Below are positions 35,561-61,503 of a stretch of DNA of 64,000 nt, in pieces. The notes below the pieces were generated by a model. The model saw nothing but the letters and a program-made list of their open reading frames with translations, searched no databases and was not told the origin of the DNA. The translations under genes and the position numbers were made by a program. Each line of letters begins with the position of its first letter. The first letter of the stretch is position 1. Source of the stretch: Phoronis australis (taxonomy: Eukaryota > Animalia > Phoronida); the NCBI GenBank assembly GCA_002633005.1, contig NMRA01000184.1:691407-755406 (forward strand). The letters run 5' to 3'.

Positions 35561-37420
35561 ATGCCGAAACGGAAAGAGCCTGAAGAAAAGCAACGCCCAG
35601 AGTGTGTGTTTACCGCAAATTTTGCCCGAAACATTGATCACCGAGTATTGGAAAACCTAAAAGTACGTTGCGAATCGGAAAACAAAAATGAACCAAACTT
35701 CCGGTCTCATGCCACCATGCATATTCTTGGTTTTATTTACAAGAAGTGTCCTGGAAGTTCACGAAGTCCTCGAGACATGTATGAGGAAGTCTTACGCGGA
35801 GATGCGAACAACATTAACGCCCTCCTGAACTTGAAGCATATGAGTCAGACGACTTCTGAGCGTAGCTATTACGAAGAAAATTTGAAGAAGATTTACAATA
35901 GTGAAGAGAGGATGCGTAAGACTTGTATGGCGAGATATTTGTATGAGACTGCCGTCTTTATGCTCTTGCGGGAAGAGCCGTTTTTCGAAAAACGGTACAA
36001 ACAAATCATTGAAAAATTTGAAACTGCAATTAAGTTAGGTGAAAAATGTTCTGTGGACGGCCACGAACTTATCGAGTGGAAGTTTATGTTAGGACGAACC
36101 TATGTGCGCATCGACTCCATCTCCGGTAATCCAGAAGGGGATGAAAGCAAATGGTTGAGATCGTGTTTTAACACCTTATATGCAGTTGCTGTCCATGAAA
36201 TTGACCCTGGACGTTTGTCGGACAGCAGTAGCAAAAAAGATTTGCACATTAAAGGCAAGGCGTGGGTGTATTTGGGTGCAATGCTAATGCGTCGTTATCC
36301 AGAATCTTTGAAGCTATCGCAATTCGTGAAGTTCGCACAAGATCACCATAAAGATTTCAATGCTTCGAAATGCTTTGATACTGCACACAGTATTGCTCAC
36401 AATCCGACTATATTACGAAGATTAGGTCAAGCCTACACTAAAATGAATGACAGTCGAGCATATTATATTTTGATTCAGGCAATTGCCGCGGAACCAATCG
36501 GATACTCTTTCAATCTTCTTGGTCAGTGGTTTCTTAAAAATTACGAAACTGATAAAACAAGAAAAGAACATTTACGTGAAGCCATTAAAAACTTTGAAAA
36601 GGCCATTGCTGCCCACTGTGACCTGTTTGTACTATATATGTCTCTCGCCAAAGCGTATGAATATCATTGCGAAATCGACAAGGCAATCGTTGTGTTTGAA
36701 AAGTGTGAAGAAACGTTTGAGGGGCTCCGCAATGTCAAGTTGTACGAACTGTGGTCCCAGTTACTTGAGAAACATGGATATCATGAAGCAGCCAAAGAAA
36801 AACGTAAGCTCGCAGACGATATTAGACAGGGTAGAAATCCAAAACTGACCTTCGATGTTGGGGTTCTGTACTGCAAGAAAGATGACAGCCAAGTCGCCGA
36901 TTTCATTGAAACCCTTGAGCATGAAATCGACGTAAGTGTGTATTATCTATCTAGGGATACAATACCTGGGAGCAACGAAATCGAAGAGCTACTAAAAATG
37001 CAACAGATTTGTAAATATATCATCGTGTTTTCAACCGACAATTTTGGTAAGGACACTGAGAGCAACAAAGCACTATTAAGAATTGTAAAAGCAAGAGACA
37101 AGGATAAAAATTACACAATCATACCACTTCTTGTTGATGATGGGGAAGTCCCTCAGTGCTTGGAGGATGTTCGACCAATTGAATATCACAAAGAGCAACG
37201 TTTGTTCTGGTACCGACTTGGTCAGGCGCTTGAAAACCACGAAGAAGAGGAGAAGAGTTATTTTTTCGACAGAAGCTGGAGTTTAGGGAACAAAAGAACA
37301 TCGACCAGTTCACTGCAGCATTCGTGTGTCCTCGCTGTGGCATGCAGCGTCTTTGGAATTTTTGTGGGGTTAGTCATTTGTTGGGCGCAGATTTTTGAAG
37401 GAATAATTACTGACTTTTGA
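35561..37420 (+). CDS. TTC22/IFIT-like TPR - TIR - C-terminal TM protein, paralog 1
   Basis: Acceptor ttttttgtag 16 nt before ATG (MPKRK); TPR helices (NINALLNL, KAWVYLG, KCFDTA, AIKNFEKAI); TIR from ~36851 (FDVGVLY, RDTIPG, CKYIIVFSTDNF, IIPLL); TM CVLAVACSVFGIFVGLVICWA. Confidence 0.9.
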   Translation: MPKRKEPEEKQRPECVFTANFARNIDHRVLENLKVRCESENKNEPNFRSHATMHILGFIYKKCPGSSRSPRDMYEEVLRGDANNINALLNLKHMSQTTSERSYYEENLKKIYNSEERMRKTCMARYLYETAVFMLLREEPFFEKRYKQIIEKFETAIKLGEKCSVDGHELIEWKFMLGRTYVRIDSISGNPEGDESKWLRSCFNTLYAVAVHEIDPGRLSDSSSKKDLHIKGKAWVYLGAMLMRRYPESLKLSQFVKFAQDHHKDFNASKCFDTAHSIAHNPTILRRLGQAYTKMNDSRAYYILIQAIAAEPIGYSFNLLGQWFLKNYETDKTRKEHLREAIKNFEKAIAAHCDLFVLYMSLAKAYEYHCEIDKAIVVFEKCEETFEGLRNVKLYELWSQLLEKHGYHEAAKEKRKLADDIRQGRNPKLTFDVGVLYCKKDDSQVADFIETLEHEIDVSVYYLSRDTIPGSNEIEELLKMQQICKYIIVFSTDNFGKDTESNKALLRIVKARDKDKNYTIIPLLVDDGEVPQCLEDVRPIEYHKEQRLFWYRLGQALENHEEEEKSYFFDRSWSLGNKRTSTSSLQHSCVLAVACSVFGIFVGLVICWAQIFEGIITDF

Positions 37421-38722
37421 AGGCCAGGTGGGGATCGGCAACTAAACTTAGTTTTAAATACACAAACTTTTCTGTAATGACCTACATAATCTTTTATCCG
37501 AAATCTATTTTACGTACCGTGGCGAATGCGCTAGACATTAGAATGAGATTTCGAAAAAATCAAAACTGCTGTAAACTAACTTCTGTCAAAAAGCAATTAT
37601 GTGATTCATTGCAGGTGCCGTCATCAAACATGTCTCGACTTGTTCCTTACTCAGATAACTATAAACTATTGAAATCACTGACATAACAGATAATACGATT
37701 TGAGATCAGTACAACGGAATGAGATTTCTAAGTAAGAAAAATTATATGACCCGTGTTACTCATTTCTCAGCACTGTTTGGTAAATAACAGGAAATTGAAG
37801 ACAAACCAGACGCAAGATTTCGTCGGTATTTCGATGTATTATGAGCAATCGGTAACACTGATGACATCTTGTGTCTTATTTTTCTTCAAAATTACTATGA
37901 TCGAAAGCCAATGTGATTGATACCAATTCCATAAGCTGTATTTGAGCTGCTGTGTTGCCTGAGTGGGCGGCTGCTGGTTAGCCTTGGATTGTTTGACTAA
38001 TTTTAGGATAAATTATCAAGTATAGGTTGATATTTTGAATTTCCTCAAACTGTTCGACGTACACGAACACGGTTATATAAAACTGCAAAAAATTGTTGTC
38101 CCCGGATTACTAAGTTTGATTGTTGGATAACAACAAAAATTACTAAAGTATAATCTGGACTCTAGATCCAGATCTTAAATTTCATCCCAGGGACATCAGT
38201 TATATTCTGACCGGTTGCATCGCTGAGATATTAAAATGCCCACCATTTTAGGGAGTTAGCAACATGATGAAACCTACCGTTTTCATTGAGTCATCTTGTG
38301 CCCATTCTTCAATGGAATTGAGTGTCTGCCTACAAAATGGTAATTCATTGAATTGAAGTGGAATAAACCCCTTCAGACTGTATCCTTTTTGAACGCAACG
38401 AACTTTGTAAAATGTGAAACTATTCTGTATAGTCAAGCTGTTGTAAACATCCAATATATTTTAGAGCGGTTCCAACAATTCAGCAACTAATTTAATCGTA
38501 AAAAGGCATTGATATGGAATCGGGTAGCGGAAAAGTTAGCCATCTGAGCGACACGTATCCCTATGCAAATGTACCCAGGACTTTACTTCGGGTATCAGCG
38601 AACAGTAATAGTTTCCCTTGGATAACTAGTATTACGCATTTTACATATTCGAGATAGCGACCAGGCACGACATACAAATATTAACACCCCCTCTTCAACT
38701 ATATATGACTAAACAGAGATGC

Positions 38723-38976
38723 GAAAGTGAAACCAGTTTCATTATTAATACTGAGATCCTTGAGCACTGAACGCACACAGGCAAACAAATCAGCGATCAG
38801 TCCGGGAAAACAAACCAGAGTAAGCACAGGGTGTCGAGTGGACCTCATCTGTTTCGCGCGACCTACAGGTGTACATCTGGTGATTGATCAGGTAAGGTAT
38901 AGCCAAAAGGTTATCACGTTGAACAGTAATGATGTTACATTTCTCTCTCGTCATAGCAACGTTTAGGGAAAGTCCC
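38723..38976 (+). promoter_or_regulatory. Candidate inducible promoter / non-coding exon 1 of paralog 2
   Basis: IRF site GAAAGTGAAACC at 38723; strong donor CAG|GTAAGG at 38892; NF-kB site GGGAAAGTCCC at 38966 (reverse complement contains GGGACTTTCC). Confidence 0.55.
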
Positions 38977-40419
38977 GACATGATTGCTTGAACTGTTATA
39001 CCGTGTGGCCGACAGGGTGTGTTATTCTCAGTCGCCTATGTATCACGGTCGGCATTTTGTGGAGTGGTGCGACAATCCCAAACGCATTCAGCTACAATCA
39101 TTAAGCAATCTGAACATGGGACGAGGCATCTTTGTCGAAACGAACCTCTGAAATAAGATGTAAGACTAACTAGTAGAGCCTATGCGTAATCGTCAGATAC
39201 TGAACTTTTATCGGACTACACCGAACTTGGGCAAAGTAAAGTAGGCTACTAGTGGCGTGATTTACAATATTATGACAGAGACGTGTTCGCATAAGCGTGG
39301 AAATCTTCACCGAATACGAATCGGTCGGTTTTATTCCCACAAAATGGCGGGCCTCAGTGAGTGATTATAGACTGCACAGCTGTCAATGATTTCTCCCACG
39401 CATGTGGCAAATTGTGAAGTGCGGTTCCTTGGTTTACCATCTTGGTGGTGTCGCAATAACTATGGTGATTGTAGAGCTTAATCACGTTTTGGAAAATCCT
39501 GTTATGAAAATGTGTTCGATTCAGTCTTGTACGGTGACGGAGACGAGTTTATTCATTGGCATGTTAAATCAATAACTCTTCGCCCATCAGTGTGACCCAG
39601 TTCAAGATAAGCAATAAAGCCGTGACGTTGCAATGTATACGGTCTGTCACAACTCACGGATCTACATACAATGCATAGCTGAGTACTGTTATAACTTATA
39701 CTAATACAAAAAAGATTAACTATAAAAGTACGAGAGAGAAAAGACAATGTCCGAAAGAAGGATACGACCAGGAAAAGATAGCATGTGAATGGAAAAACTC
39801 AACCAAAACGTAAGCCTTTTAGAACAAATATTAATGACAATGTTGCTTTTTTGAACAATGATGTTTCATACTAGAATACAGCATTGAGAAAATGGTGAAC
39901 TGAAGTACCAACTCGACATAAGAACCGGCATCTAAGCTTACGGAGGCTGACCATAGCATTGGATGTGACACATGGTACAAACAAGACTTGTATTTGTAAA
40001 GTTAGAGAACCCCAGCAATCTTCTGAATGCAGTGAGTGGAGAGTAGGTATACAAAATAAAGTTAAGAGTTTAACTTTTGCTGCAGGAGAGCTACACAAGC
40101 CGGAAGGTTACGAATAAGTGCACAAACAGTTCACATCGTTGTCGCGAAATATCAGCTGATAAGTCACATGAATTAATATAACTCAACCAAGGATACTAAT
40201 ATACCTGGCGTGCGTTCAGTAGACGCTAGGACCTACGCTAGGACCTAGCTAAAACCTAGTCAAAGTCACGTGCTCTCATTTAAAATGCACAGCAATATCT
40301 CACGTAATCTCGCGAAGTCTTGCTTTTAGCGAGGTCCTAGCGTTACACAACGGGAGGCTGGTTCATCACGTTGTCAAGTAGTTTAAAGACCGGCAGTTCG
40401 CTCCAGACTGTAATATAAT

Positions 40420-40720
40420 TCTAAAAAATTATTATCTCACATTTACTAGAGTTGTACTTTACGTCATGAGAGGAATTGTACTTTACGTCATGAGAGGCTT
40501 CATACGTCTCACAAGTCTGAATCAGTTTATTCAAACCAGCAACAGAAGGCACAAGTATAATACCATCAGCATACATCAGGTGATCAATTTTAACATCAGA
40601 GATTATGCATACAACAGACAGAGACTTCAATAACTGACGCTCAAAACATAAACAGTAAATAGATAAGAAGAGAGGATACCACCCTGCCTCACACCATTAG
40701 AGATAGTGAAACATGACGGG
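40420..40720 (-). mobile_element. LINE RT fragment
   Basis: SNGVRQGGILS and HLMYADGIILVPSVAGLNKLI motifs on the minus strand. Confidence 0.75.
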
Positions 40721-41299
40721 CATGACAGATCAGGATCGTGTGGTTTTGTCCCTACAGATCATTCTGTGTCGGACTGTCTAGGGCTGCTTTGAATGAGGTT
40801 GGCTGATGCCGTAGGTCTGAGGCAAATGGAAAAGGATTGGAAATAACGCGGAGAAGTTGACGGTGCTTGGTCAGAAAATGGATAGAGAACTCTTTCCCGT
40901 GATGAATATGCAAAACTAAGTTAATTTGACAACTTGGCGCGAACCTGGTATTATGGTAAAATATGCAAACTACGTGGGTAACTTCTGGAGTGTTTGTGTT
41001 TTGTAAAAACAGTTCGAGTGAGAAATCTGTTGAATGAGACAACCAGGGCAACATTCTTTAACCTAATGTTCTGATTGAAGTCTATCCCACTGGTGGATTT
41101 AATCATGGTAAGCCAACTTTTTATAAGAGCGCTTAGCACTGCTTGAACATTTTGACAGTGTCTTTAATTCTTTGTGGGGATTGGAACCTCGACCAAAAAT
41201 AACCAACAAAACTAATGCCAGAAATGGATTAACCAATCCGTTCAATGTTCAATCTTGTTGATTTAGTTTGAGGTTGTTTAACCCGACAACGGGGATTAT

Positions 41300-41917
41300 G
41301 TGGACAGTGCCTTTCAGAAGTGGGTTAGAGATTTAAACCTTATTTCTATTGACGATTTTGATTGGTTCAAAATTTGTCGATTCCCGTATGTTTTTACGTT
41401 AGATTCACATTTAAGGTATTTCCAGTACAAAATTGTACGTTGTATTATAACAACAAATGTCTTTTTTACGTTAATTAAAGTTCAAGAGAATGACTTATGT
41501 ACATTTTGCTCTGAGCATAGAAAGACATTTTACATCTATTCGTGGAATGTAGATATGTAAGAGAGTTCTGGAGGAAAGTTTGGGATGATTTCCTTTGGAT
41601 TGATTTTTTAAACGGCCTTGACATTCTGTTTTAAAATACCGAATGTAACAACCGCATAAATCTTGTAGTTTGAATATCAAAAAATAAAATTTATCAATGT
41701 AGAATGCAGAACAAAATTCTATTAACAACCGATGTCACTAGAGTTTTGAAAAACTATAGAAATTTAGAATTTACTATTAGTAAAATCAATGGTACATTAG
41801 AAAATCACAACGAAAAATGGAACTTAGTACAACCATAATGGTGGTAAATGTTTATGTATGTTTATGTACGTATACATTGTAATTGTCAGTTTGTTATAAT
41901 AAATGTTTGAAAAAAAA
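41300..41917 (+). mobile_element. 5'-truncated L1/Tx1 LINE 3' end
   Basis: LRYFQYKI...NDLCTFC..(L)HLFVEC..VREFW Cys/His motif; AATAAA at 41898 followed by an A-tail. Confidence 0.8.
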
Positions 41918-42504
41918 TTCTGCAAAGATAGGAACAGTGGCAAACAAGGAGCCTATCTTTGGTAGTGGGTTTTGGGCTTTATCACACAAGGTAGTTCTTA
42001 TAGTACGACCTTAAAAGCAGGAAAAATCCTGATAACAACCAACTCGTCGTTGCGCAATCTGAGTAAGAGACCTGTTGCAGTGTTGCATTTTTGTGGTCAC
42101 TTTAGAATTTATGTAATATTTTGACAGAAAAATGAACGTAGGTTTTCCCTTTCTGTTAGTCAAAACCCGTGTTTACGATTGTTATGTTACTTAAAGAGTT
42201 TGGACTCTGGAAATATAGGCGGATTTAGGGGAGGGGGGCATCCCCCCTTGGCTGCCGCACAAAAATAAAACAGCAATAGCCTAGGGAAAAGTTTATTAAT
42301 TAACTCCGGTAATTAAAATTATACGGCTGAAACATGTTTTAAATGTGTGCAGTTTTAGTGTTGGGGGGGGGGCTCAGATCCAATTTCAAGTGTCAAATTC
42401 GGAACACGGCGCAAGCGTAACAGAACTATGGCTAAGTACAGGCTCTCCCGCGATATCCCAGTCAGTGGCGCTGCGCACTACGACTCCGTTTCCGTCGTCT
42501 GCTT

Positions 42505-43213
42505 CACAGGCGTCCTCAGCTTCTGATCGTCCACAATACACTGCAAGGTACAGTATAACACTCCCGACTAGGAATTCCACGGGTGCTTCACTTCAGCCGT
42601 CCATAGTAAACACAAAACTTAATAAATTTACACAAAACAGAGATTCAACAAACCATGAAGAATTGTTCTTTCTCCCAACACCATTCACGGTGTCCTGCTT
42701 CACCCAGTTCGCAAGAAATTCGCGGTCAAAGCACAAAAATCTTCCCAAAAAGCCCGTCGTGAGAAACTCCTTTGTAAATCGAAGGTCAAGGACGATTATT
42801 ACGGAATTATCCGATAAGTTACGGATGAACGGCGCAGTTGCCAATTTGTTACGGAAAGTTACGAAATCGTTACAATCGGCAATTGCCGTTCATCCGTAAC
42901 TCATCGGATATTTCCGTATCGTCCTTGACCTTCAATTTACAAAGGAGTTTCTCCGGACGGGCTTTTTGGGAAGATTTTTGTGCTTTGACCGCGAATTTCT
43001 TGCTAACTGGGTAAAGCAGGACACCGTGAATGGTGTTGGGAGAAAGAACAATTCCTCATGGTTTTTTGAACCTCTGTTTTGTGTACATTTATTGCGTTTT
43101 GTGTTTGTTATGGACGGCTGAAGTGAAACACCTGTGGAATTTCTAGTCGGGAGTGTCATCCTTGTAGTACTATATAGTGTATTGTGGACGATCAGAAGCT
43201 GAGGACGCCTGTG
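42505..43213. repeat. ~710-bp fold-back palindrome (MITE/foldback-like)
   Basis: Arms 42505-42796 and 42918-43213 are reverse complements, giving near-identical ORFs on opposite strands; the spacer is itself an inverted repeat. Confidence 0.9.
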
Positions 43214-43603
43214 GTCTGTTCCACTGTGCAATGAAGACAATTACTTCATTAATTTTTTTAAAGAAAATGGAATCTGAGTGACGATGAAAAAGCAGAAGCT
43301 TCTGGTAAGATGTGAATTTCAATCGAAGCCTTAGTGAATCCCTCAGAAACTCATAATTCTCTCTTTGTCAAACCTTAACTTAAGACGATTTCCAAAGCAA
43401 TCGCGTCATTATTGCCAACACAAAAAACGGATTTGGTCTTTCGGGCAATTGAAGACAATCTTAAATATAACATTTTTTTTTTACGAACTGATTGCACAAA
43501 ATATAAAACGTGTAATAAGCATTACAAAAAGAAGTAGGTTTCGCGCGCAAACGCTGTGGAATATAAACAAGTAGGTCTCTCAGTATCAAATTAGGAGTGA
43601 AAT

Positions 43604-43680: not shown

Positions 43681-45042
43681 CCTATTTGACACGTTCTCCG
43701 TGTTTTTTTTTTTTTTGCCTTTTTTCTTGGATAATTGTTCAGGAATCCAGGAAAATGCTTGATTTTGAGAGGAAAAAACAGAAAAATTTCCTGGGCAGGA
43801 GGGGGGTTTGTCATTCGGTGCTATGCGCATCTACAATCGTGCTTTGCGCAAATGTTTACAGACAAAATGTTGGGAACCCTTGTGATATCCTAGATCCACC
43901 ACTGGGAATATAACTATATTCATAAAAAGAGATACCGTTATTTTGAAAACCTGTTGCATGGTTGTGACGATCAACATTCAAGAACAAGAAAACGGAACAA
44001 CTAGATTGACAAGCGGGACTTCAGGATAAAAAGTGGGACATCTCGATTTAGCCAAAACGTAAGGGTGAGATGCTCGTTGTAACACACAGAGAAGCACCAC
44101 CGCCGGACATCGTTTTTTGTTAAACGGCAGATGTAACACCCAAAAATGTCGGACAACGTTTTTGTTGTTTTTTATTGCTGAATGGGAAATTGCGGCTGCC
44201 GCAAAAAACGTCCTTTTTTCTTTTTCATCAAGCGGGAAAAAATGGTTATGTCGCGCGGGACAATAGTATATGATAATATGCTAATTTGGCTGTGTGTCCA
44301 AAAGCGGGACATTTAGATGTCGTGGCGAGATGGCAGAAAAAAATCAAAAGGTGGGACAGTTCGCCAAGAGCGGGGTAATTGACAAATATGATTGGGTTCT
44401 TTTAGGAGGTAAACTTTTCCTTTTTTAAATTCTGTTTCACGGGTATAGGTAAATACACATACTACAGATAACAGTCTGACCTACTTCACAGAAATCGAAT
44501 TAGGAAAAAACGGCATCTGAGCAACAGGTAAACATTGCTCAAATGAGTTATTATGGAAACGATTGAAAATACACATGCACACACACAGACACACACACGC
44601 GCGCGCGCGCGCAAACGCACACCTCACAGTAGCGGATCTAGGATACCATAAGGGGGGGCCCAACATCCTCGGGGAATTGGGCAAAGCGCGATTGCGTGTG
44701 CAGGAGGCTGCACGAAAGTTGTGGGGGCCGAGGGGTTGTGGGCCTTCTGTTCAGAAAATCTATCTGTGGACTAAAAAAAAAAAAAAAACGGGAACGCGTT
44801 TCCGCGTCCCATCCTCCCCTCTTCCGAACTCAATATTTCCTCACGCTGTTGCTCTTTCATTTTGCTTGCGGCAGCTAATTCCGCCTATTGCTTGTAGTAT
44901 GATAGTCTCTTTTAATTTTGGTAAAGAATAAGTTTTATAACATGGGTTAAGGCAAGCTTGTATTTTAGTGTTTTATACCAAGTTAATCTTTAAAACAACA
45001 AAAACCTACTATTCTCTTTTCTGCAGGTACGATCAGAAAACA

Positions 45043-46944
45043 ATGCCAAAACGAAAATCATTTTTGGAGAAAAAGAGGGTGGATGAGGAGGGCCTACTAT
45101 TCACGGCGTGGTTTGCAAGAAACATCGATCATAAAATTTTGGAAAACCTGAAAATACGTTGTGAATCGGAACATCAGCTGGAGCCATACAGCCGGCGCCA
45201 TGCCGTCATGAACATCTTGGGTTTTATCTACCATAAGTGTCATGACCGATCCTCGCCTCAGGAAATGTTCAAACAAGTCCTAGAGGATGACCAGACTAAT
45301 TTGAACGCTCTGTTAAATTTGGCGTATGTGCATGAATGTGCTGGCCAGAAAAGCGATTCGCTGAAATATATCAGACAATACCACAGGCTTTTGCAACTTG
45401 ACGAGAAGCATCAGAAAGTCATCTATGCCAGACATTTGTATGAAATTTCGGTATTTATGCTTTCAAGAGAAGAAAATTTTATAAACAAATACTACAAAGA
45501 AATAGTCAAACATCTCCAACTTGCCATTGATCTAGGCAAGGCATATGTCATGAACGAAGTGGCCATTTGGAAGTTTGCTCTCGGTTCAACCTATATGCGA
45601 ATTGACTCAGTTTTGGCTCAGCGGGAAAATATAGAAAGTAAGTGGATGAAGTCAGCTTTGAAAAATTTGTACGAGGTTGCAATTTACCCGCTAGATCCCA
45701 ATCAGTTGTCCGAAACGTGTTATCATTACCCTTTACATGAGGCACTGTATGACACAAAAGGTAAGGCACGGGCCTACATGGGAACTGTGTTGTGGCGACG
45801 ATATACTAAAAAACGCTTCACCCTGTCGAATTTTATCGATCGCGAGACATTGCAAGCAAAGCACAAGCAGTTTGATGCTTTAAAATGTTTCGACACTGCG
45901 CAAAGCATAGCGCCAACTACGCCAACAGTGCTGCGAAGAATTGGACAAGCGTATACCGATGACAAGAAACTACGTGGTACTGCTTATGAACTGCTAAAAG
46001 GAGCCAAAAAAGCAGAACCAATTGGATATTCCTACAGTCTACTAGGTCAATGGTATCTTAAGCAGTATGAGGACGACAGAAACAGACATGATTATTTACA
46101 GCAGGCCATCAAAAAATTCCGGAAAGCAGTCGAAAAGCACTGTGACATGTTTGTTTTGTTTAAATGCCTCGCTAAGGCTTACGAGTACAATGGGGAAGTT
46201 GACAAGGCTCTCAATGTATTCGCCTCGTGCGAGAGTACGCATGAGGGACCCCGCACGGCTGAACTTTACACGTTATGGGCAGATTTACTTGACAAAAATA
46301 ATCACCACGAGTCGGCTGAAAAGAAACGAATTTTGGCTGCTGAAACTCGAAAGGGACAAAATCCAAAACAAATGCGCGATTTTGGAGTTCTTTACAACGA
46401 AAAAGACAGAAAAGCGGTTACAAAGTTTGTCGAAAATGCAGAATCCAAATTCAGCGTGAATGGGTACTTCATAGACAGGGATCTTATTCCGGGTCACGAT
46501 GTCCTGAAGGGTTTGACCCAGATGCAGGAAAAGTGCAGACTTATTATTGTTTTTGTGACGGAAAATTTTAACAAATCTGAAAAAAATGAGGGCGATCTCA
46601 GTCAAATTATTTCTGCACGGGAAAGGGGGAATACAATAGTACCTCTGCTAGCAAAGAATGGGAAATTGCCCAAATCCCTGTGTTATATACATCCGATAGA
46701 ATATAATAAAAGCAACTCTTTTTGGGAAAAACTTGGGCAAGTTCTTCAAAAAGGTCGATCACGACGATTTGCAATGATTCGGGATATTCTTAGCTCAACA
46801 AGGAAAAGATGGATTTTTGTTAAAGTATTTTTATTCTTCTTGGCGCTGTATGTCGTTTATGTGTTAGGAAATATCGAGGGACGTGTTTCTTGTTCAAATG
46901 GTCACAATTTGTTCCCCGAGCTCTACTCAAATCTGAGCATGTAA
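45043..46944 (+). CDS. TTC22/IFIT-like TPR - TIR - C-terminal TM protein, paralog 2
   Basis: Acceptor ttttctgcag 16 nt before ATG (MPKRK); same TPR blocks; TIR RDFGVLY/RDLIPG/CRLIIVFVTENF; basic stretch then TM WIFVKVFLFFLALYVVYVLG. Confidence 0.9.
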   Translation: MPKRKSFLEKKRVDEEGLLFTAWFARNIDHKILENLKIRCESEHQLEPYSRRHAVMNILGFIYHKCHDRSSPQEMFKQVLEDDQTNLNALLNLAYVHECAGQKSDSLKYIRQYHRLLQLDEKHQKVIYARHLYEISVFMLSREENFINKYYKEIVKHLQLAIDLGKAYVMNEVAIWKFALGSTYMRIDSVLAQRENIESKWMKSALKNLYEVAIYPLDPNQLSETCYHYPLHEALYDTKGKARAYMGTVLWRRYTKKRFTLSNFIDRETLQAKHKQFDALKCFDTAQSIAPTTPTVLRRIGQAYTDDKKLRGTAYELLKGAKKAEPIGYSYSLLGQWYLKQYEDDRNRHDYLQQAIKKFRKAVEKHCDMFVLFKCLAKAYEYNGEVDKALNVFASCESTHEGPRTAELYTLWADLLDKNNHHESAEKKRILAAETRKGQNPKQMRDFGVLYNEKDRKAVTKFVENAESKFSVNGYFIDRDLIPGHDVLKGLTQMQEKCRLIIVFVTENFNKSEKNEGDLSQIISARERGNTIVPLLAKNGKLPKSLCYIHPIEYNKSNSFWEKLGQVLQKGRSRRFAMIRDILSSTRKRWIFVKVFLFFLALYVVYVLGNIEGRVSCSNGHNLFPELYSNLSM

Positions 46945-49483
46945 AAGATTAAAATAATTCTCAGAAAATTATTGTGTCTCAGTTGTAAAGAATGAACGTT
47001 TCGTGCGCTATCTCTTCGATCAGGAAATTATTGCAGCAACCGAGTCAAGCCAAAAGCTATTTTTATCCTGATCTTAGGATGTTGCTTTATCATCGCAACG
47101 CTTGACTGTGTGACAAGATAAGGTATAATACTATTACCAACAGTAACCACTTAACTTTTACTCTAATGGTATTGCTGTGGTACGAGATAAGGGCAAAACG
47201 GGGGTACAAAATTGTAGTTGAATTAGTTTTAAATATAACCTCCAATTTTGTTCGAAATCCTTTAAGGTGTTGTCTTATGAAGACAGGGAGAATGGGATTA
47301 AATGATAACCAAGTGTTTATTGCCAGTCTTGTCTTTGATGAATTTCACTAATAAAATTTAGAATAAACAATTCGGCTCCTTCAGTTCTGATATGCACGAG
47401 GCAAAGAACGAAAGTGATTTGGGGTCGCACCCACTTAAAACACTGACTATTAGCTACAGCGTGAAAACAAAGAACCCCAAAAATTTCAACGGCAGTTAGA
47501 CTGGCGTTCAGGGGCGGATTCGGGCAGTGGACTGGTTAGTTATTGTGAAAAAAACGTTATCAAAAAACTACAATCATTATTTAGAAGGAATAATTCCTGA
47601 CATTTATGTTCAGGGGTTTAATATTGCTTCAACTGCGCTGTTTCCGCCCCTGAGGTAAATGAATTCAATTGACATGCAGGAACAACTCGCTATTTCAGCG
47701 TTCATACACAAAACGGTTATGTGGCGGTTAAAAATTCTCGGGAATCATTTAATTTTTCTGTATGTAGCTAAAATAAATGCTTTCCTATAGTCAGAAGCAG
47801 GTGCTTCTGCATATATAGGAATGGTGAGAAAATTTGATTTACAATTCCGATATTCATTTTGTGAGTAATTTGGTAATATAATGTCTAACCAAAAGGTTTT
47901 TCTTTCTAATGTTAGAACTAAGTAGTAAAATTGAAACAGTAATTAAATTTGATAAATTCCCTGGACAACGGTCCTGCTCGTAGAAATGCGTGTATCCAGG
48001 TACTCACGTAGGAGCACTGACATGCAGACGCCCCTCGGGTTGGTGAACTGCATTTTGCTCTAGTGAATATCGAATTGCATACTTGAAAACTCCAATGCGC
48101 AGAGCGCACCTTTTGAATTTCCAACCCAAGTCCATGCTGAAGTCTGTATGTGAAATCGGGACTTTTTCACGAGGCTTCTGAGGCGTTTGCTGAAGGATTA
48201 CGCAAACTGCAAACCGTATCTTGGGAAGAGCATAAAAGCCAGGACTTTTCTTCCCTACCAGGATTCGGAGTTCCTGCCCGTAGAAATTTTCAGAATTAAT
48301 GCGTAATAACGTGAAACATGATACATTCCAGTGATTTCAAAATAAAATTAATATTTCAAAAATCATTAAATTGTGTTATTTACGGCTCTCATTTTATTGA
48401 AGGGATTTGAAATTTTTACGTGACATGTACACGGTCACCATATACCGGTAGTCTTACGTTCGCTCATTGAGTATCGCACATTAGCTCTTTACAAAGAAAA
48501 CTTTCCCAACAATTATATATTGGCGAAAATGGCGATTATTTTCTTAATTTCGGTCCTGCTAAGGACCACTAAAATATTTCGAGTTTATTGATGAGTTGTC
48601 AACGGAAGAGTCTCTGGAATCCTCTTGTAATATCGTAACTGCCGATAAAGTGAAACCTGGCTGGCAGTTTTAGCCCAAGAGAAATGTTTGCTCGACTCCT
48701 CGTGGCAATACAAGTAACTAACAAGACAAATTAGTCCTGGAGTTATTCAGGTGTCATTCAGCAGGAGATCGATGAAAAAGATATCAGTGATGAGATTTCA
48801 CCCGACCACGAGCTCAATGACATAGAGATCGTTAGAATTATTGACGTAAGACTTGACACAATGTCTTAGAGTATTGTTAAACGCACGTTCATTTTACAGT
48901 AATGCTTTATTTCAAAACATCGAATTTTTGTTTTTATTCTACCAACAAAATTTAAATCTAGGTATATTAAACTAATCATCACTTCCGATGCTATCATCAC
49001 TTAGTTGAACTTTCTAAACTCAATTGCAATCATTTTCCTTTTGCAACAATGCCCACTACTGAATTAGGAGTCGCTGTGGTACAAGTTTCTAAAAGTGCTT
49101 CGACAATTTGTTTCCGAAAGCGGTCCCTGAGTGATTTTTGTGGATACAATATCACTTCAGGTAATCGTGAGAGAGTAGGTAACTAAGTAAGTATGTACGT
49201 AAGAATTAAGTTAGTTAGTTAGTTAGTTAATTGGTTGTTAGATTAGAATTATTGCACTTGCGACTTGAAAATTTGCTTTCTTATTAATATTTCCAATACA
49301 TAACCGATTTATTTTGGAATAACATTAGAACGAGTTTTCAAAGAAAATTGAATCACGTTGCGAATCTTTAACCTTGTCGGCAAGTCTGCAGCCAATTGTT
49401 TACAAAACTACAGATTTTAACTCAATACAAGTAGAAAGTTAGTAAGGTTATTTTTTTTTAACTTTTCAACAATCTACAATTAA

Positions 49484-53759: not shown

Positions 53760-54900
53760 CTTAAGAATTGGCGTCCTATAGTATGCCCAATGTCATTTAT
53801 AAGTTAGCTTCAGCAGGAGTTACTGGACACATTAAAATGTTTTTTGGTAATTTGATCCACGAAGATCAATCGGCCTTTATCTCGGGAAGGAATATGAGTC
53901 AAAACATTCGTGCACTTTACAACCTTTTTATTACAGTGAGAAGCTGGCAAACTAATTGATTTCGAGAAAGCGTTTGATTCTTTAGCATGGGACTTTATAG
54001 ACAAAACGCTTTCCTTTTTTAATTTTGGTTGTTCCATTAAACGTCATGTCAGAGTGTTTTACAAAAACATAAAGTCTTGTGTTGTAGTTAATGGACAACC
54101 GTGACGCTGGTTTAATGACCGACGTGGAGTTAGACAAGGTGACCTTTTATCCCCCAATCTATTTATTATCTGTGCGGAAATAATGGGTCTCATGATCAGA
54201 CATGATAGTGATGTTAAGGGTATTAGAGAGGGTAACAAGGAATTCTGTATTTCTCAATATGCGGATGATACGTTCATTACATTAGATGGATCTGGAGTTT
54301 CGTTGATGTCTAACTTGAATGTTTTGAAAACATTTGCCTATTCCTCTGGCTTTCGCATCAATATTGAAAAGACAAAAGCTGTTTGGTTTGGTAGTAATGA
54401 TATGAGTCAAGAAAATTACAACAAAAGAAAGCCCGCCGTGGACAAACAATAATCTTACTTTCCTTGGAGTTGATTTTCAAGTCGACCTAACAGACATGGC
54501 TGATCAAAATTATTTGCCGACGTTAAAAGAGAAACAACTCCTATTGACGAAACCTGACGCCTTTTGGAAGGATTACTGTCAAATCTCTGGCTGTGTCGAA
54601 AATTATTCACCTTTTGATAGCCCTGCTAAGTCCATCCCAATAAGTATTTTTTAAAATTTATTTGGCAAGGACGTAACGATAAAATTAAACGCACCGTGCT
54701 GTTCTTGACTATAACAATATCAAAATTACCAATATTTTTAACTTTTGTAAGGCTATTAAGTTCACTTTGGCACCTAAATATATAGGCTATGTTTCAAAAT
54801 CATCTGAACTGTTATATTCGTTATATCGAAAGGTTCAAGGTTTTGCTAAAGTTGGTGATAATTTTTTAATCGTAAACTACCACATACTTATAAACAATAC
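53760..54900 (+). mobile_element. L1/Tx1 LINE RT fragment (degenerate)
   Basis: LIHEDQSAFISGRNMSQNIR, DFEKAFDSLAWDFI, GVRQGDLLSP, ISQYADDT, INIEKTKAVW, LTPFGRIT. Confidence 0.85.
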
Positions 54901-55030
54901 TGTAAGGATTTTTTTATTTTTGGATTGAACATAAAGACTTCTTAAGTTATATTATTTACTTTTTTCATGCTCATTATGCCATATATCCGATGTCAGTTGT
55001 CATATAGTGTTTGATTTTACTTTATTTCTG

Positions 55031-55074
55031 TTACTGCTGAAGAAGGATGTTATTATATCCGAAAATTTCAGTGA
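55031..55074 (+). ncRNA. Candidate minimal type I hammerhead ribozyme (Penelope-like)
   Basis: TTACTG-CTGAAGA-A-GGAT(gttattat)ATCC-GAAA-ATTT-CAGTGA: conserved core, stem II and stem I pairing. Confidence 0.45.
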
Positions 55075-55171
55075 TCCATTTTTGTTGTTTTATTTACGTA
55101 TATTTATGATAAGCTATTGTAATTGCTACAAACTGTTTTCTGATCTGAGCGGGTTATCTTAACCCGATATT

Positions 55172-56013
55172 GAAAGCGAAAGTGAAGTTCAATGTTTCGC
55201 TGTGACGCAATCAGTTTATCTAAAAATAGAACATCACCTATGCGTTAAATATCAATATATGACCATGACTTCATAGATGAAACGGTCGACGGTTGACAGT
55301 GGGATTACTAACAGCTTAATCAGGCATGACAGCGGTAATCAATTTTCGGGGACATTCTCGAACTATTGCACTAAGAAACTTTTGTGCCAAATCTATCATC
55401 GGATTTCAGATATACGCAAATATATATATATATATACATTTTTTAATTGGAGTGGTTGTGGAGTCTAATTAGTGATCCTGGCTGAATCAATGAATCAAGA
55501 ATTGTCTTGTTCCCTCACTGTGCGTCCGTGGCAACAAGGTAGGAAAGACCGGCGACTAAACATCCAATGACTAACATTACGTGGCGTCTGGAAAATCCAT
55601 CTTTCTATTTTTACTTGCTCTGTGACCGTCCTTGCAATGTTCAGAGGACATGTCCTCAGGTTGATATGAACTGTGATTCAGTCTTGCGTTTGCGCAATTA
55701 CAGCCCTGTTTTGTGACTTTTGATTTGATACACAATCTAAAGGCCGTGAACTATGTGCTGCAAATCAGCCGGGCAGCTTTGGGGGTGTTATCAGTTGGTT
55801 GAGTAGGAGGGGGTTTTCCTGGAAGAAGACTTATCAAACATTACTTAGTGGGTTGTACAAAGGTAAACTCTAACACTCATTTGCACACTTAAACAGGTTA
55901 CGGATGTTTATCACTTGTGTTCGAGGCCTCCCATCATCTCAGTAGCAAGTGACTGAATAGGCGGGGAGTGAAACGGTTTCAATTGAAGCATAGGATCGGT
56001 GATTCAGGTATAT
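55172..56013 (+). promoter_or_regulatory. Candidate promoter region of paralog 3
   Basis: GAAAGCGAAAGTGAA at 55172; kB-like GGGGTTTTCC at 55810; AGTGAAACGGTTTCA ~55967 and GGTGATTCAG|GT ~56000 echo the paralog-2 upstream motifs. Confidence 0.4.
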
Positions 56014-57676
56014 CTACAGGCGAACGACGCTACAGTTGAGAGAAGAGCTTGGGTGACGTTACTTTCTGAAAATCATTTCTCTTCATTTTACTGTTGACAA
56101 TGACCAACGCTTCGTTTCATCAGAAGCAGCTCTTTGTCCTAGTGTAACACTAGCAGGCTACTAAGACCAAAAATAGCATAACTGGTTCTGGTCGGTGCCC
56201 GGCCGCAATCACAACAGTTTGAAATCAGCGCTTGGTCTCAAACCAGGCACCAAGTGAAGGATTCTGACCCATTTCTGTTGCCATCAAATGACTTTTTTTT
56301 AAAAATACCCATTGTTCCCTTTATTTAAAAAACGCACATACCAGAATCAAATATGCCATTGACTTTTTGTGACCTGGTGAAAACGCTCTTGTAGTACGCA
56401 TTTGGGGATGCTAAAATTAATGTGATAGACTTGAACGTCTGTTCATATAAAAACATGTTCTTAATGCCATTCTCTAAATAAGTTTGTTAGTTCGAGTGTA
56501 AGTGTTGGAGCCAGTAAATTTCCGTTAGATATCTGTGTAAGCGGTAACACCATATCAATAATTTGTTCTTTTACGTGTAGCCGGACTATACATTGGCACA
56601 ACGTTTCGGTGGTTCATTCTCGTGATAACCTTAGTGTTCTGCAGTATTTTTTGAACAACGAGCATGGGTGGCGGGTAAACTCATGCACGGTGAAACTAGT
56701 GACACCTTTTGGCTGAATCGCTATCACTTATTAATCATCCATTAGCTTCGAATACAATCCATGTGCCGCCATGAATGCATATACCAACTACAGGTGCTCG
56801 TACGTCAAAGAACGTCGGAAACACCTGAAGTTGACCTGGAACATAAACGAACGACTCACGTCGACCGTTCCAACTTAAATAGGTTAAAGGTTTAATGTAA
56901 ATTACACAATGTTTTCTCAGTCAAGTAAGTTAGTTTATTTAAATAGCACCACTTTTTAAAATTTCTTACAAAAACGCATTTCTGTGACTGTGTGATCAAA
57001 CTCCAGTCCCGCGGCGACGAGATTCCTTTAGTTACCCGCCGAAATCACCGGGGCTAGAGCTAGTTCAAGGTGTTCGGCGCGTATGTGAGGCAGGGGATTT
57101 GTACCGCGGGTTTGATGTTTGTTGATCCGGGACTGAAGTTTTGAGGATCACAGTTCGGTAATTTAGAGGCGCATAGATAAAATCGTTTCCACTTCATCCG
57201 ATTGTTCGATTAAAATTGCATTCCGAGTAATCGATCGAGAAATCTGTAGAACCTATCGTGCAGCATCGTACAGTGTATGCGGTTTGGTTGTTCGTATTTT
57301 ATTTTTTAAACTGCGCATTGGAACTGATAATACTGAATTTGAGATTTTTTATAGTTTCAATATTTTATATTGCCGTAACCACCTTTGACATTTCATTCAT
57401 ATTTTGCAAAAAAGTGGAGGTTCCGAACTGATTTTTAAAATTGCATTGTCATTTTGATCCCATATATGAACATTTTACCCTACACCCCGGCCATGCACAG
57501 CACACTTGATTGTGATGCATCCCAAAGACCCTGGATAGCACAAACTTAAAGCGATTTTGATTTAGATTACTTACCGGTATGAAATGTGTTCAAATTGTTC
57601 TTTAATCAAAATAGGTGGTATTCCTGGGCTTGGAAAGATTTGAAAGTTTGTTTTTGCTTTAAACTATTCTCCAACT

Positions 57677-57941
57677 CTTGACTTGTCCCGGTGGGTCTAT
57701 TTATTCAAGGCTCTACTTGTTGATTGTTACGGTGTGTCCATTTATTCAGACTCTGCAACTTGATTTGTCATAGTGTGTCATATTCAGGCTGTACCACTTG
57801 ACTGGTTACGGTGTGTCCATTTATTCAGACTCTGTGAGTTGATTTGTCATAGTGTGTCATTATATTCAGGCTGTACCACTTGACTGGTTACGGTGTGTCC
57901 ATTTATTCAGACTCTAGAAGCTGGTTTGTCACGGTGTATCC
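57677..57941. repeat. ~40-bp minisatellite (6-7 units, dimeric pattern)
   Basis: Repeated cttga..gtta/tcac/tggtgtgtccatttattcagactct units. Confidence 0.8.
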
Positions 57942-58479
57942 ACTTGCAAACTGAAAGTTTTTGCAAGACAAAAACACCTTTAATCAGAATAAGAAACAAA
58001 TTGGGATCGATTTAGTAGCGGCATGTGGCCTAAAACAAAAGTTAGTGACATCGACATACGGCGCAAAGAGAATTTCATCACTGTATGAAATATTACGAGA
58101 CTGATTTTGAGAGACTAAAATGCGTAATTCTACTTTAGATTTTCATCCAACTAAACATGGCGAAATGTAGTTTTAAGCCTTATTTTGAAGAATCAAAGTG
58201 AAATTATAACTGCATATTGTGTATTAGTCAAATCTCAGAAACAATAAACAAAAAGAACAAACTGTAATACCTTTATACGATATGCTTATATCTCATGACT
58301 TGAACAAGACCACAGGGTTCAGTTAGACGAGAAAAGTGCACGATTGGTGCGCAACAGAGAGGCACAATTGGAAGTGCGGGTCTGGAAAAAGTGAAAAGTC
58401 TGTGGAAAGCCAAACGTTTGTGAGAAAATATTTACTTCCAAATTACTCTTTTCTGCTTACAGGCGAACCAAAGAAAAAG

Positions 58480-60402
58480 ATGCCAAAACGCGGTGAGAGA
58501 CAACCATTCTTAGGAAAGAAGAATGTTGTGGAGAAAGGTTTTTTTACTGCTTGGTTTGCAAGAAACATCGATCACAAAGTTCTTGAAAATCTGAAAGTGC
58601 GATATGAATCAGAATACCGACTTGAGCCGTACAGCCGGCGGCATGCCGTCATGAACATCTTAGGGTTTATTTATCACAGATGTCACGGTGACAAGCCAGC
58701 ACCGCAGCAGATGTTCAAAAAGGTGCTCGATGAAGACCCAACGAATGTGAACGCTTTGTTGAGTCTGATGTACGTTTATGACTTTGCAGGTCAAAAGAGC
58801 GAATCGCTCAAATATCATCGACAGTATGACAGGCAACTGCAAAGCGATGTGAAGCACCAAAAAGTCATGTACGCCAGGCACTTGTATGAAATTTCAGTCT
58901 TCATGCTTTCAAGAGAAGAAACCTTTTTAAACAAGAATCACAAAGTAATAACAGAAAACCTTGAACACGCCATTGCCTTGGGAAATGAAACATCGTTAAA
59001 CAAGGATGAAGTAGTAATTTGGAAGTTTGCTCTAGGTTCAACCTTCATGCGAATAGACTCGGTTTTGGCAGAGCGTGAAAATCCAGAAAGCAAAGCAATG
59101 AAGTCGGCTCTAAAAAACTTTTACGATGTGGCAATTCACAAAGTGGATTCCAATCAGTTACCTGGGACGTTTCGTGAAAACACATTGCAGGAACCTGTAT
59201 TAGACACGAAAGGTAAGGCTTGGGCTTACATGGGAGCTGTGTTGTGGAGAAGATATCCAAAAAAACGCCTCACCCTATCGACTCTAATCGAACGCGTGAC
59301 ATTAAAACCTGATCACGAAGCGTTTGATGCTTTCAAATGTTTCGAAACGGCCCGATACATTGCACCACACACTCCAACAGTGTTGCGGAGAATAGGACAA
59401 GCGTATACGGGTAATGAAGATTTTAATGGTATGGCGTACGATTTTCTAGTACAAGCAATAGAGGCGGAACCAATTGGATACGCTTATAGCTTACTAGGTC
59501 AATGGTTTCTTAAGCAGTATGAGAGCGAGAAAAAGCAAGATTCGCTGACACTGGCCATTGAGAACTTTCAAAAAGCTGTCGCAGGTCACTGTGACATGTT
59601 TGTTCTGTTTAAATGCCTCGCAAGGGCTTACGAATATAACAAGGAAGAAGACAAGGCTCTCAACGTATTCGCCTCGTGCGAGAGTACACATGAAGGCCCA
59701 CGCACCGTCGAACTTTACACACTGTGGGCAAATTTGCTTAAAAAAACTGGTCACCAAAAGTCGGCTGAAGAGAAACGCAAGCTCGCCGAGGACACAAAGA
59801 TGGGAAGAAATCCAAAACAGATGCGTGACTTCGGCGTTCTCTACAACAAAAGTGATGTAAAATCTGTAATCAAATTCGTCGAGAATGCCGAATCCAGATT
59901 CAGCGCGAGTGGGTACTTTTTGGACAGGGACCTGAACGCGGGAGATCATGTCGTAGATGGATTAGCCCAAATGCAGACGAAGTGCAGATACATAATTGTG
60001 TTCGTAACTGAAAATTTTAACAAAAGTAAAGGTGACCAGAAAGACCTCAACCAAATTATTGCGGCTCGAAGATCTGAAACAAAGAATACAATCATACCTT
60101 TACTAACAAAGAAGGGTAAACTGCCCCAACCCCTGGCTCATGTACTTCCCCTTGAGTATGATAAAGGTAACTCTTTCTGGAAGAAACTGGGACAGGTTCT
60201 GGAAAAAGGTCCCTCTCAAAGATTTAAAATATTTCGAAGAATTTTGAAAGAGAAAAGGAGAGCACACCGTTCATTGTTATTTTTTTTGTTAAACTTAGTT
60301 ATGACCGTTGTCGTATTCATAATTGGGTCGTATTTTTTTTGCAAGTGTGAAGATAGCAATCAGGGTAGCAGCGCTGGTTGCAATAAATGTGAGTGCAATT
60401 AA
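58480..60402 (+). CDS. TTC22/IFIT-like TPR - TIR - C-terminal TM protein, paralog 3
   Basis: Acceptor ttttctgcttacag 17 nt before ATG (MPKRG); closest to paralog 2; TIR RDFGVLY/RDLNAG/CRYIIVFVTENF; TM LLFFLLNLVMTVVVFIIGSYFF plus Cys-rich tail. Confidence 0.9.
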   Translation: MPKRGERQPFLGKKNVVEKGFFTAWFARNIDHKVLENLKVRYESEYRLEPYSRRHAVMNILGFIYHRCHGDKPAPQQMFKKVLDEDPTNVNALLSLMYVYDFAGQKSESLKYHRQYDRQLQSDVKHQKVMYARHLYEISVFMLSREETFLNKNHKVITENLEHAIALGNETSLNKDEVVIWKFALGSTFMRIDSVLAERENPESKAMKSALKNFYDVAIHKVDSNQLPGTFRENTLQEPVLDTKGKAWAYMGAVLWRRYPKKRLTLSTLIERVTLKPDHEAFDAFKCFETARYIAPHTPTVLRRIGQAYTGNEDFNGMAYDFLVQAIEAEPIGYAYSLLGQWFLKQYESEKKQDSLTLAIENFQKAVAGHCDMFVLFKCLARAYEYNKEEDKALNVFASCESTHEGPRTVELYTLWANLLKKTGHQKSAEEKRKLAEDTKMGRNPKQMRDFGVLYNKSDVKSVIKFVENAESRFSASGYFLDRDLNAGDHVVDGLAQMQTKCRYIIVFVTENFNKSKGDQKDLNQIIAARRSETKNTIIPLLTKKGKLPQPLAHVLPLEYDKGNSFWKKLGQVLEKGPSQRFKIFRRILKEKRRAHRSLLFFLLNLVMTVVVFIIGSYFFCKCEDSNQGSSAGCNKCECN

Positions 60403-61110
60403 TGGGGAAACACTCCATTATTTTGACGCGGTTGTGTTCTACTGGAGCGCGTAAATTCAAATCAAATCCTTTGAATTGTGTGTATTCTAATTAGGAAAAT
60501 TAAGCTAGAAAAGAAACTATGTGTAAATTATAGACCCAGCTTCAAACAGACTCGTATTCATAATATTCACTCTAAAGGGAACATCAGATCAATCTGTTTG
60601 GATTTAGCTTCAGATTTGGACGCTGTACCTTACGATTTACAATTAATTAAAGAGACATGGAACGCGAAAGCTCGTAAAAATATATATTTTAAACAATTCC
60701 TGGCGAAAGTACCATCTCGCAACGTCTAGTACAGTGTAATTCACTTTTCCCTGTGAGGAAATATCCCCCAAAATCACAAAATTTACGATTTTTGAAATAA
60801 GCGCGAAGGAAAAACTCTGTGATTACCACAGAGTTTTTAATATGCCCTTAACTAACGATAACTGCGCGCATGCGCTCACAGTTGCTTGAAGTGGCCAGCA
60901 GTTAACAGATCGTTTCTTTTTGAAATTTGAAACTGAAAGAAAATTCTTCGATATCAACAAAGATTGAAAATCTTTACGAACAAACCCTAAAAATACTTGG
61001 TGAGCACGTTGCGAGGCAGAAAACCACTTTCAATATTGAAATTTAGTCCAAGGTCAGAGTAGATGACGTCTAGAGGTTTGTTAAAGCCGACGTACCTCGT
61101 GCTGTGTTCT

Positions 61111-61503
61111 GACCAAAAAGATCTTAATCAAATAATTGCGGTTCGAAGATATGAAACAAAGAATACAATAATACCTTTACTAACGAAGAAGGGTAAACTG
61201 CCCCAACACCTGGCTCATGTACTTCCTCTAGAGTATGATAAAGGTGACTCTTTCTGGAAGAAATTGGGACAGGTTTTGGAAAAAGGTCCCTCGCAAAGAT
61301 TTAAAACAATTCGAAGAATTTTGAACTCGGAAAGGAGAGAATACAGGTCACTAGCAGTTTATATATTTTTCTTAGTTAATGCCGCTGTCCAATTCTTGAT
61401 AATTGGGTGTTTATTTTGTAAGTCTGAAGATAACAGTCAGTGTAGCTGCACTGGTTCCAACAAATGTGAACGCAATTCCTGGGGAAGCACTCCATTATTT
61501 TGA
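61111..61503 (+). pseudogene. 3' fragment of a fourth TPR-TIR-TM paralog (TIR C-half + TM)
   Basis: DQKDLNQII..NTIIPLLTKKGKLP..FWKKLGQVLEKGPSQRF matches 60034 onward; the downstream flank is also duplicated (60033-61110 vs 61111-62783). Confidence 0.85.

Follow-up and report, generated by a model that had tools for sequence, protein, structure and literature searches.

We analyzed a 64,000-nucleotide stretch of the Phoronis australis genome (contig NMRA01000184.1, positions 691,407 to 755,406; hereafter the window), which carries a tandem array of three genes and a gene fragment between positions 35,561 and 61,503. Each gene encodes a protein with a TPR superhelix of predicted IFIT type, a TIR domain, and a single C-terminal hydrophobic helix. 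We give an even chance to the reading that the three proteins are TTC22/IFIT-related TPR-TIR paralogs which, with this added helix, would act as membrane-tethered, one-component sensors that signal through TIR assembly.

Organization of the gene array

The three open reading frames (ORFs) lie on the forward strand, are uninterrupted, and encode 619, 633, and 640 residues. Paralog 1 (P0001; 35561 to 37420) consists of an IFIT-fold TPR region at residues ~14 to 426, a TIR domain at ~427 to 560, and a hydrophobic helix at 589 to 607 (nucleotides 37325 to 37381). The corresponding regions are residues 14 to 438, 444 to 570, and 591 to 609 (nucleotides 46813 to 46869) in paralog 2 (P0002; 45043 to 46944), and ~16 to 444, ~445 to 577, and 599 to 617 (nucleotides 60274 to 60330) in paralog 3 (P0003; 58480 to 60402); both of these proteins have a basic stretch before the helix, and the tail of paralog 3 is rich in Cys. 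Pairwise identities are 46, 46, and 66%. Between paralogs 2 and 3, the ratio of nonsynonymous to synonymous substitutions (dN/dS) is 0.14 in the TPR region, 0.12 in the TIR domain, and 0.69 in the tail, while the pairs involving paralog 1 are saturated. Tandem duplication, which the preliminary description of this locus had proposed, is supported by these comparisons of sequence, as is purifying selection; that description had also suggested the dN/dS comparison, as well as the Foldseek search reported below.

The fourth, fragmentary copy that had been noticed alongside the three intact genes is a duplicated 3' end of paralog 3 with its 3' flank (61108 to 61503, forward strand), which comprises the second half of the TIR domain, the helix, and the tail in an open frame. 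Positions 61108 to 61476 are 72% identical to residues 518 to 640 of paralog 3; its stop codon is at 61503, and an ATG in the same frame lies at 61063 (61063 to 61503, forward strand). Relative to paralog 3, dN and dS are 0.03 and 0.36 in the TIR half (57 codons) and 0.31 and 0.29 in the tail. Because dN is low relative to dS in the TIR half and an in-frame ATG is present, the fragment could represent a paralog that was truncated recently, or it may encode a product of 146 residues, half a TIR domain plus the anchor. The stop codon of paralog 3 lies 8 codons before that of the fragment, the sequence otherwise matching. No further copy was found by tblastn within the window.

Predicted structure of the TPR region

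The TPR models of Pfam score mostly below their cut-offs in the paralogs, and helical repeats extend over approximately 425 residues in both predicted models, which were built from alignments of 3 and 47 sequences; the ~430 residues of TPR-type helices described earlier are thus borne out. The AlphaFold model of paralog 2 built with the 47-sequence alignment has a mean predicted local distance difference test (pLDDT) score of 84.8. It superseded the model from the 3-sequence alignment, in which the N terminus was poor (pLDDT 63) and SPINDLY or LGN ranked first. Foldseek ranks 1 to 3 for the 47-sequence model are IFIT1 and IFIT5, with TM-scores by target of 0.60 to 0.68, compared with 0.52 or less for the other rows listed. 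When the 1000 best chains from Foldseek were realigned with VIA-align (962 aligned), the model superposed on IFIT5 (PDB accession number 4hot) with a Z-score of 28.0 (root mean square deviation = 3.3, number of aligned residues = 368), and the match is collinear, with residues 14 to 438 of the model placed on residues 8 to 409 of the IFIT5 chain. IFITs fill the first 12 rows; IFIT1 has Z = 27.5 and IFIT2 has Z = 20.6, and the best non-IFIT is Tom70 (Z = 20.0). An IFIT-type TPR superhelix that is collinear from the N terminus is well supported by the predicted model. At the level of sequence, IFIT1 ranked highest among natural TPR proteins with a 16-sequence profile (E = 2.9e-17), and the N-terminal fragment of IFIT1 was matched separately.

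The likeness to IFIT1 and IFIT5 (PDB accession numbers 5w5h, 5udi, 4hot, and 3zgq) in the model thus comprises ~370 residues of collinear TPR superhelix (Z = 27 to 28) at approximately 15% identity and leaves out the final ~70 residues of IFIT5. Whereas IFITs consist of TPRs only, the TPR region of the window proteins is followed by a TIR domain and a hydrophobic tail. IFITs have been reported from jawed vertebrates only, and TPR matches in lancelet, acorn worm, and lamprey were judged to be non-IFIT (PMC3688568).

TIR domain

The presence of a TIR domain, as claimed in the preliminary description, is confirmed in all three paralogs by Pfam TIR_2 scores above the curated 28-bit cut-off (30.1, 30.3, and 32.8 bits). 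The TIR domain of the model matches Hydra TRR-2 with a Z-score of 17.3 in VIA-align; by sequence, the solved structures that match best are MyD88 and TLR2. The BB-loop Pro is found in paralogs 1 and 2 and is replaced by Ala in paralog 3, and the box-3 FW is present in all three. In the sequence alignment, the column of the catalytic Glu in helix αC is occupied by Ala in paralog 1 and by Asp in paralogs 2 and 3; Glu occupies this column in 17 of the 40 TIR domains of the wider family described below. This Glu is essential for TIR catalysis (bioRxiv 10.64898/2026.04.20.719644), and the TIR domain of the window proteins, which lacks it, is probably a non-enzymatic scaffold. The domain thus resembles the scaffold TIRs of MyD88, TLRs, and Hydra TRR-2 in its fold, BB loop, box-3 FW, and absence of the catalytic Glu, and the window proteins differ from MyD88 and TLRs in having neither a death domain nor a leucine-rich repeat ectodomain.

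In the TIR trees, the family TIRs cluster apart from those of the window (support 92/90; 80/91 in a smaller tree), and the latter fall outside the clade of death-domain (MyD88-like) proteins and weakly beside a TIR-Bcl-2 protein from Owenia (support 63/77 and 89/84). A joint clade of window and family TIRs was not rejected by the approximately unbiased (AU) test (p-AU = 0.233, with 18 of the 49 rows left out for the test). For each window TIR, all of the ten highest-ranking BLAST matches come from outside the family, in a set that had been chosen with the profile of the window proteins. Replacement of the TIR domain was considered and is not claimed, because the matches were preselected by that profile and the AU test retains common descent. 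In the Owenia fusiformis protein (P0128; CAH1781043.1), the TIR domain is fused to a Bcl-2 domain, and a hydrophobic helix is found at the C terminus.

C-terminal hydrophobic helix

The hydropathy scan agrees with the earlier statement that the proteins have no signal peptide and one C-terminal hydrophobic helix: none of the three paralogs has a hydrophobic N terminus, and each contains one hydrophobic segment of 19 residues with a Kyte-Doolittle value of 2.77, 2.46, or 2.62 (2.41 in the fragment; next best segment 1.21 or less). This segment ends 12 to 24 residues before the C terminus and is also a helix in the AlphaFold model. The scan thus gives the pattern of a tail anchor, i.e., a single helix within ~30 residues of the C terminus and no hydrophobic N terminus. 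The 20 residues preceding the helix contain 7 Lys and Arg residues in paralog 2 and 9 in paralog 3, as noted earlier for this pair; paralog 1 has just 3. Behind the helix, the sequence is neutral to acidic, with 0, 1, and 2 Lys and Arg residues versus 2, 2, and 3 Asp and Glu residues in paralogs 1 to 3.

The preliminary description had likened this arrangement to MAVS, which is a CARD-based mitochondrial protein with a C-terminal anchor and no sensor domain. In outline, the two would share a C-terminal anchor and a cytosolic signaling domain. Mitochondrial anchors of the MAVS type, however, have a short basic tail after the helix, whereas the tails of the window proteins (12 to 24 residues) are neutral to acidic and partly rich in Cys. 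Because the basic residues precede the helix and the tail is neutral to acidic, the analogy fits poorly, and general targeting rules favor the endoplasmic reticulum (ER) or secretory membranes. It is likely, judging from the sequence, that the helix inserts as an anchor with the TPR and TIR domains in the cytosol, and ER or secretory membranes are likelier than mitochondria. A short basic N-terminal motif (MPKR...) resembling a nuclear localization signal is common to all three proteins and would be unexpected in a tail-anchored protein.

Conservation of the tails is low (9 to 30% identity; dN/dS of 0.69 and ~1), and all four copies nevertheless retain the helix at an equal distance from the TIR domain. 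Among the 40 selected TIR-containing relatives, 36 end 13 or fewer residues after the TIR domain, and only one, P0081 from Lytechinus, has a hydrophobic segment behind it, with a borderline value of 1.91. The predicted tail anchor is a distinctive feature of the trio with respect to the selected relatives.

Relatives of the window proteins

A profile of the three proteins was searched against 1.84 billion representative sequences, and the best 150 of 219 matches (E ≤ 0.001) were examined. The set of relatives (n = 41) is composed of 40 proteins from these 150 that are matched in the N-terminal TPR region and 1 from a 16-sequence search; the fragments P0020, P0022, P0025, and P0070, generic TPR matches, and TIR-only matches were left out. 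The best family match among those listed has an E-value of 5.7e-25, and identity to the window proteins is 17 to 23%. In 40 of the 41 relatives a TIR domain follows the TPR region, the exception being gar TTC22. Names were retrieved for 30 proteins, which belong to crinoids, sea stars, sea urchins, a sea cucumber, acorn worms, lancelets, oyster, mussels, abalone, limpet, Lingula, and gar, under database names such as "uncharacterized," "TTC22-like," and "TIR domain-containing." Among the relatives, P0005 from Antedon has two TIR domains and an additional C-terminal region.

This invertebrate TPR-TIR family shares with the trio the order of TPR and TIR and the conserved columns. Its short form (590 to 700 residues) occurs in echinoderms, hemichordates, and lancelets, and its long form (700 to 960 residues) in molluscs and Lingula as well. 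The trio differs as a long-branch lineage of its own, in which the TPR-TIR linker is absent, the catalytic Glu is lost, and the tail helix missing from 39 of the 40 relatives is present. The blocks that the preliminary description had aligned with vertebrate TTC22 are present in gar TTC22 (XP_006635058.1), which is homologous to the window proteins over the TPR blocks (E = 2.2e-7) and, in contrast to them, has neither a TIR domain nor a hydrophobic tail. The TPR region of the trio is thus homologous in sequence to both TTC22 and the invertebrate family. The designation "TTC22/IFIT-like" holds in terms of homology and of predicted fold, the best match among solved structures being an IFIT; a clade of the trio with gar TTC22 was not rejected (p-AU = 0.134). 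In a TPR tree of 22 rows, the trio forms a separate lineage with a stem of 1.77 between the short clade (100/99) and a group of long forms and TTC22 (92/92). A sister relationship to the short clade is not claimed, because this placement depends on midpoint rooting.

Other searches were less productive. An Atlas search with the full protein matched one TPR+TIR cluster from echinoderms and two TPR clusters from molluscs at 0.95, whereas the TPR part alone gave generic TPR clusters only. Word-index protein searches with paralog 2 and with the 3-sequence alignment found no match, that with the 16-sequence alignment included 1 family member in 19 matches, and a metagenome scan yielded 207 pattern matches with no relatives among them.

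Gene layout, promoter sites, and RNA reads

A pyrimidine tract followed by AG precedes each ATG by 16, 16, and 17 nucleotides in paralogs 1 to 3, giving predicted splice acceptors at 35530 to 35544, 45010 to 45026, and 58445 to 58462 on the forward strand. Because these distances differ in phase, the sequence favors an intron in the 5' untranslated region of each paralog. The single coding exon of the preliminary description would then be preceded by a noncoding exon. For paralog 2, an ATG-free first exon is predicted at 38740 to 38891 (forward strand, start approximate); it ends at a strong donor (GT at 38892) with the best score in 38723 to 40000 (8.2 versus 3.3 for the next). A motif match to the interferon-stimulated response element (ISRE) lies in the predicted promoter (38723 to 38733, forward strand), and a kB-like motif match lies in the predicted first intron (38966 to 38976, reverse strand). 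A tandem ISRE-like site is found at 55172 to 55186 (forward strand), 3.3 kb upstream of paralog 3. Strict ISREs number 4 in the window versus 0.66 expected, a count matched by 1 of 100 resamplings, and all are in the half that contains the cluster. IFIT genes have two exons, the first consisting of the ATG plus 2 nucleotides (PMC3688568). The window genes resemble them in the tandem cluster, in the entire TPR region being in one exon, and in the ISRE-like sites upstream of paralogs 2 and 3, and would differ in that the predicted intron lies before the ATG and not within codon 2.

Evidence of RNA was taken from three raw runs with the same species label (18 to 19% of each read). Paralog 2 has reads in one direction at a depth of 0.8 to 2.8 in all three runs, and paralog 1 has one-direction reads at a depth of ~2 in two runs and 0 to 0.3 in the third; this direction is sense for most stranded libraries and is uncalibrated in these runs. 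The bin with the predicted first exon of paralog 2 (667 nucleotides, 38673 to 39339) also has one-direction reads, with a mean depth of 0.3 to 0.5. In paralog 2, reads extend across the tail-coding bin, and depth drops to 0 to 0.09 in the bin 47344 to 48000, where two AATAAA signals (47350 to 47367, forward strand) mark the predicted 3' end. The tail-coding bin of paralog 1 (37304 to 37474) is covered by a contig without mismatch. Among the joints listed from the three runs, which were filled by repeats, there was no splice junction of the paralogs. An inverted repeat in the predicted intron of paralog 2 (42505 to 43213; 88% over ~720 nucleotides) has high read depth on both strands, as for a genome-wide repeat.

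Proposed function and alternatives

A sensing and signaling role is what we infer for the trio. The genes would be induced through ISRE/IRF sites, and a basic, IFIT-like groove would bind the end of a non-self RNA; binding would cluster the proteins on the membrane, and clustering would nucleate TIR-TIR assembly with an adaptor of the MyD88 type, which in turn would activate NF-kB/IRF. The first 430 residues of the paralogs are indeed basic (net charge +6 to +13). More tentatively, and with some doubt, a receptor that recognizes the ends of non-self RNA, is inducible through IRF, and is anchored in a membrane may have evolved in this lineage from an ancestral IFIT-TIR protein, with the TIR domain possibly replaced.

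The pocket of IFIT5 for 5'-RNA is formed by E33, T37, Q41, K150, R186, Y250, R253, Y254, and R260, and R253 is required for RNA binding (PMC9677429; pocket residues are also given in PMC13197388). If the seven positions after the start of the profile match are ungapped, IFIT5 R253 corresponds to R286, R298, and R303 in paralogs 1, 2, and 3, an Arg at the R253/R255 position being a further likeness to IFIT1 and IFIT5 in the profile mapping. Arg is also conserved across the family at two other positions numbered on paralog 2, R186 (Arg or Lys in 37 of 44 relatives) and R299 (Arg in 34 of 44). The invariant R186 of paralog 2 is presumably equivalent to IFIT5 R186.

Several findings weigh against the mechanism outlined above. 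On the same ungapped extension of the profile range, Y250, Y254, K257, and R260 are changed to Thr, Arg, Gln, and Thr, respectively, and no more than 15 of 44 relatives have Arg at the R253 position, so that an IFIT-like RNA pocket would be partly kept at best. The match stops at IFIT5 residue 409 of 482, which implies that part of the C-terminal clamp is missing. Where IFITs rank by sequence varies with the profile used: one placed BBS4 and SPINDLY above IFIT1 and another placed OGT above IFIT5, IFIT was absent from the best 60 matches of a middle-region profile, and the 3-sequence AlphaFold model placed LGN first (Z = 19.8 versus 17.4). Two of the four strict ISREs are copies of a single duplicated site downstream of paralog 3, leaving three independent sites; paralog 1 has only a loose ISRE match, within repeat-rich DNA; and the window shows no enrichment of kB sites, whose number, 4, was reached by 31 of 100 resamplings. 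Ttc22 knockout mice are reported to have no phenotype (PMC13693868).

The incomplete pocket would also suit a membrane-bound adaptor or decoy, in which a protein or peptide, and not RNA, would be the ligand of the TPR groove and the TIR domain would regulate TLR/MyD88 complexes by joining or blocking them. The low Pfam TIR scores (30 to 33 bits), the long branch of the TIRs, the Ala in place of the BB-loop Pro in paralog 3, the description of TTC22 in the available text as a protein-interaction TPR protein, and the TIR-only competitors proposed in oyster (PMC4346834) all point the same way. We regard this as a possible explanation of lesser probability, since the predicted fold is much closer to that of RNA-binding IFITs than to that of peptide-binding TPRs, and Arg at the R186 and R299 positions is kept across the family.

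It is unlikely that the proteins are instead IFIT-like effectors, which would be induced to sequester viral RNA at ER-derived replication membranes and would use the TIR domain for self-assembly only: purifying selection on the TIR domain is as strong as on the TPR region, and MyD88/TLR-type boxes are kept. The fold, the tandem cluster, the low basal RNA, the ISRE-like sites, and the predicted two-exon layout do resemble vertebrate IFIT genes (PMC3688568). A sensor-gated, NAD+-consuming enzyme making signals of the cyclic ADP-ribose type appears highly improbable; catalytic animal TIRs are common (bioRxiv 10.64898/2026.04.20.719644), and 17 of 40 family TIRs carry the Glu, but the paralogs have Ala, Asp, and Asp where Glu is essential. 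We would be surprised if the hydrophobic tail were a read-through or spliced-away sequence on ordinary soluble TPR-TIR proteins, as its poor conservation and the termination of most relatives at the TIR domain could suggest, given that the helix is retained in all four copies at the same distance and RNA covers the tail-coding bins of paralogs 1 and 2.

Relation to published work

The preliminary description had called the family undescribed. This does not hold for the architecture, as TPR plus TIR is widespread in public proteomes; only the IFIT identification and the tail anchor were absent from the literature searched. A "TIR-TPR" class appears in a figure legend of an oyster paper (PMC4346834), the abbreviation is repeated in PMC9334734, and PMC7075850 mentions TIR-TPR for bacteria only. 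The available parts of PMC5549309, PMC6321704, PMC8195603, bioRxiv 2025.07.21.665930, and bioRxiv 2026.05.30.728932 do not mention the TPR-TIR architecture; neither "TIR" nor "IFIT" occurs in the text of PMC13693868, nor "TPR" in the texts of PMC2858798 and PMC2575513. In the open-access literature searched, no paper was found on TTC22 together with a TIR domain, and the term "TPR-TIR" was absent among the matches listed. No open-access paper was found on an IFIT-TIR or an anchored TPR-TIR protein, and subscription papers or preprint supplements may already list the family. A survey and classification of bivalve ecTIR-DC proteins, reportedly by Gerdol and colleagues in 2017, may do so as well. 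The TPR+TIR architecture is known but unstudied, and the IFIT identification and tail anchor are new relative to the literature searched.

In the prevailing view, IFITs are effectors that appeared in jawed vertebrates together with interferon (PMC3688568). The predicted combination of an IFIT fold with a TIR domain across many invertebrates suggests an older role in sensing and signaling. If the receptor reading is true, sensor, TIR adaptor, and organelle tether would be united in one chain that faces the cytosol and forms a counterpart both of TLRs and of RIG-I combined with MAVS; IFITs would then have begun as signaling receptors before interferon. The tail-anchored version is compact, encoded in a single exon, and easily cloned, and would allow TIR signaling driven by an IFIT domain from a membrane to be tested; the same system could inform how invertebrates detect viral RNA.

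Surroundings of the array

The window is ~39% GC and contains remnants of long interspersed nuclear elements (LINEs) and three single-N assembly joins. Decayed pieces of LINE-type retrotransposons lie at 15869 to 20169 and 54105 to 54452 (forward strand), with an endonuclease match in Pfam (E = 1e-8) and reverse-transcriptase-like fragments. The joins are at 20166, 51828, and 61968; two have near-identical flanks (878 nucleotides at 98%, 49484/51829; 151 nucleotides at 100%, 61577/61969) and are probably assembly overlaps. A single ORF of 632 residues at 22996 to 24894 (forward strand) encodes a DUF885 protein (Pfam E = 1e-148), a "bacterial" family. It has hydrophobic N and C termini, like a secreted or glycosylphosphatidylinositol-anchored protein, and a HEADPGHH stretch that resembles a metallopeptidase site.

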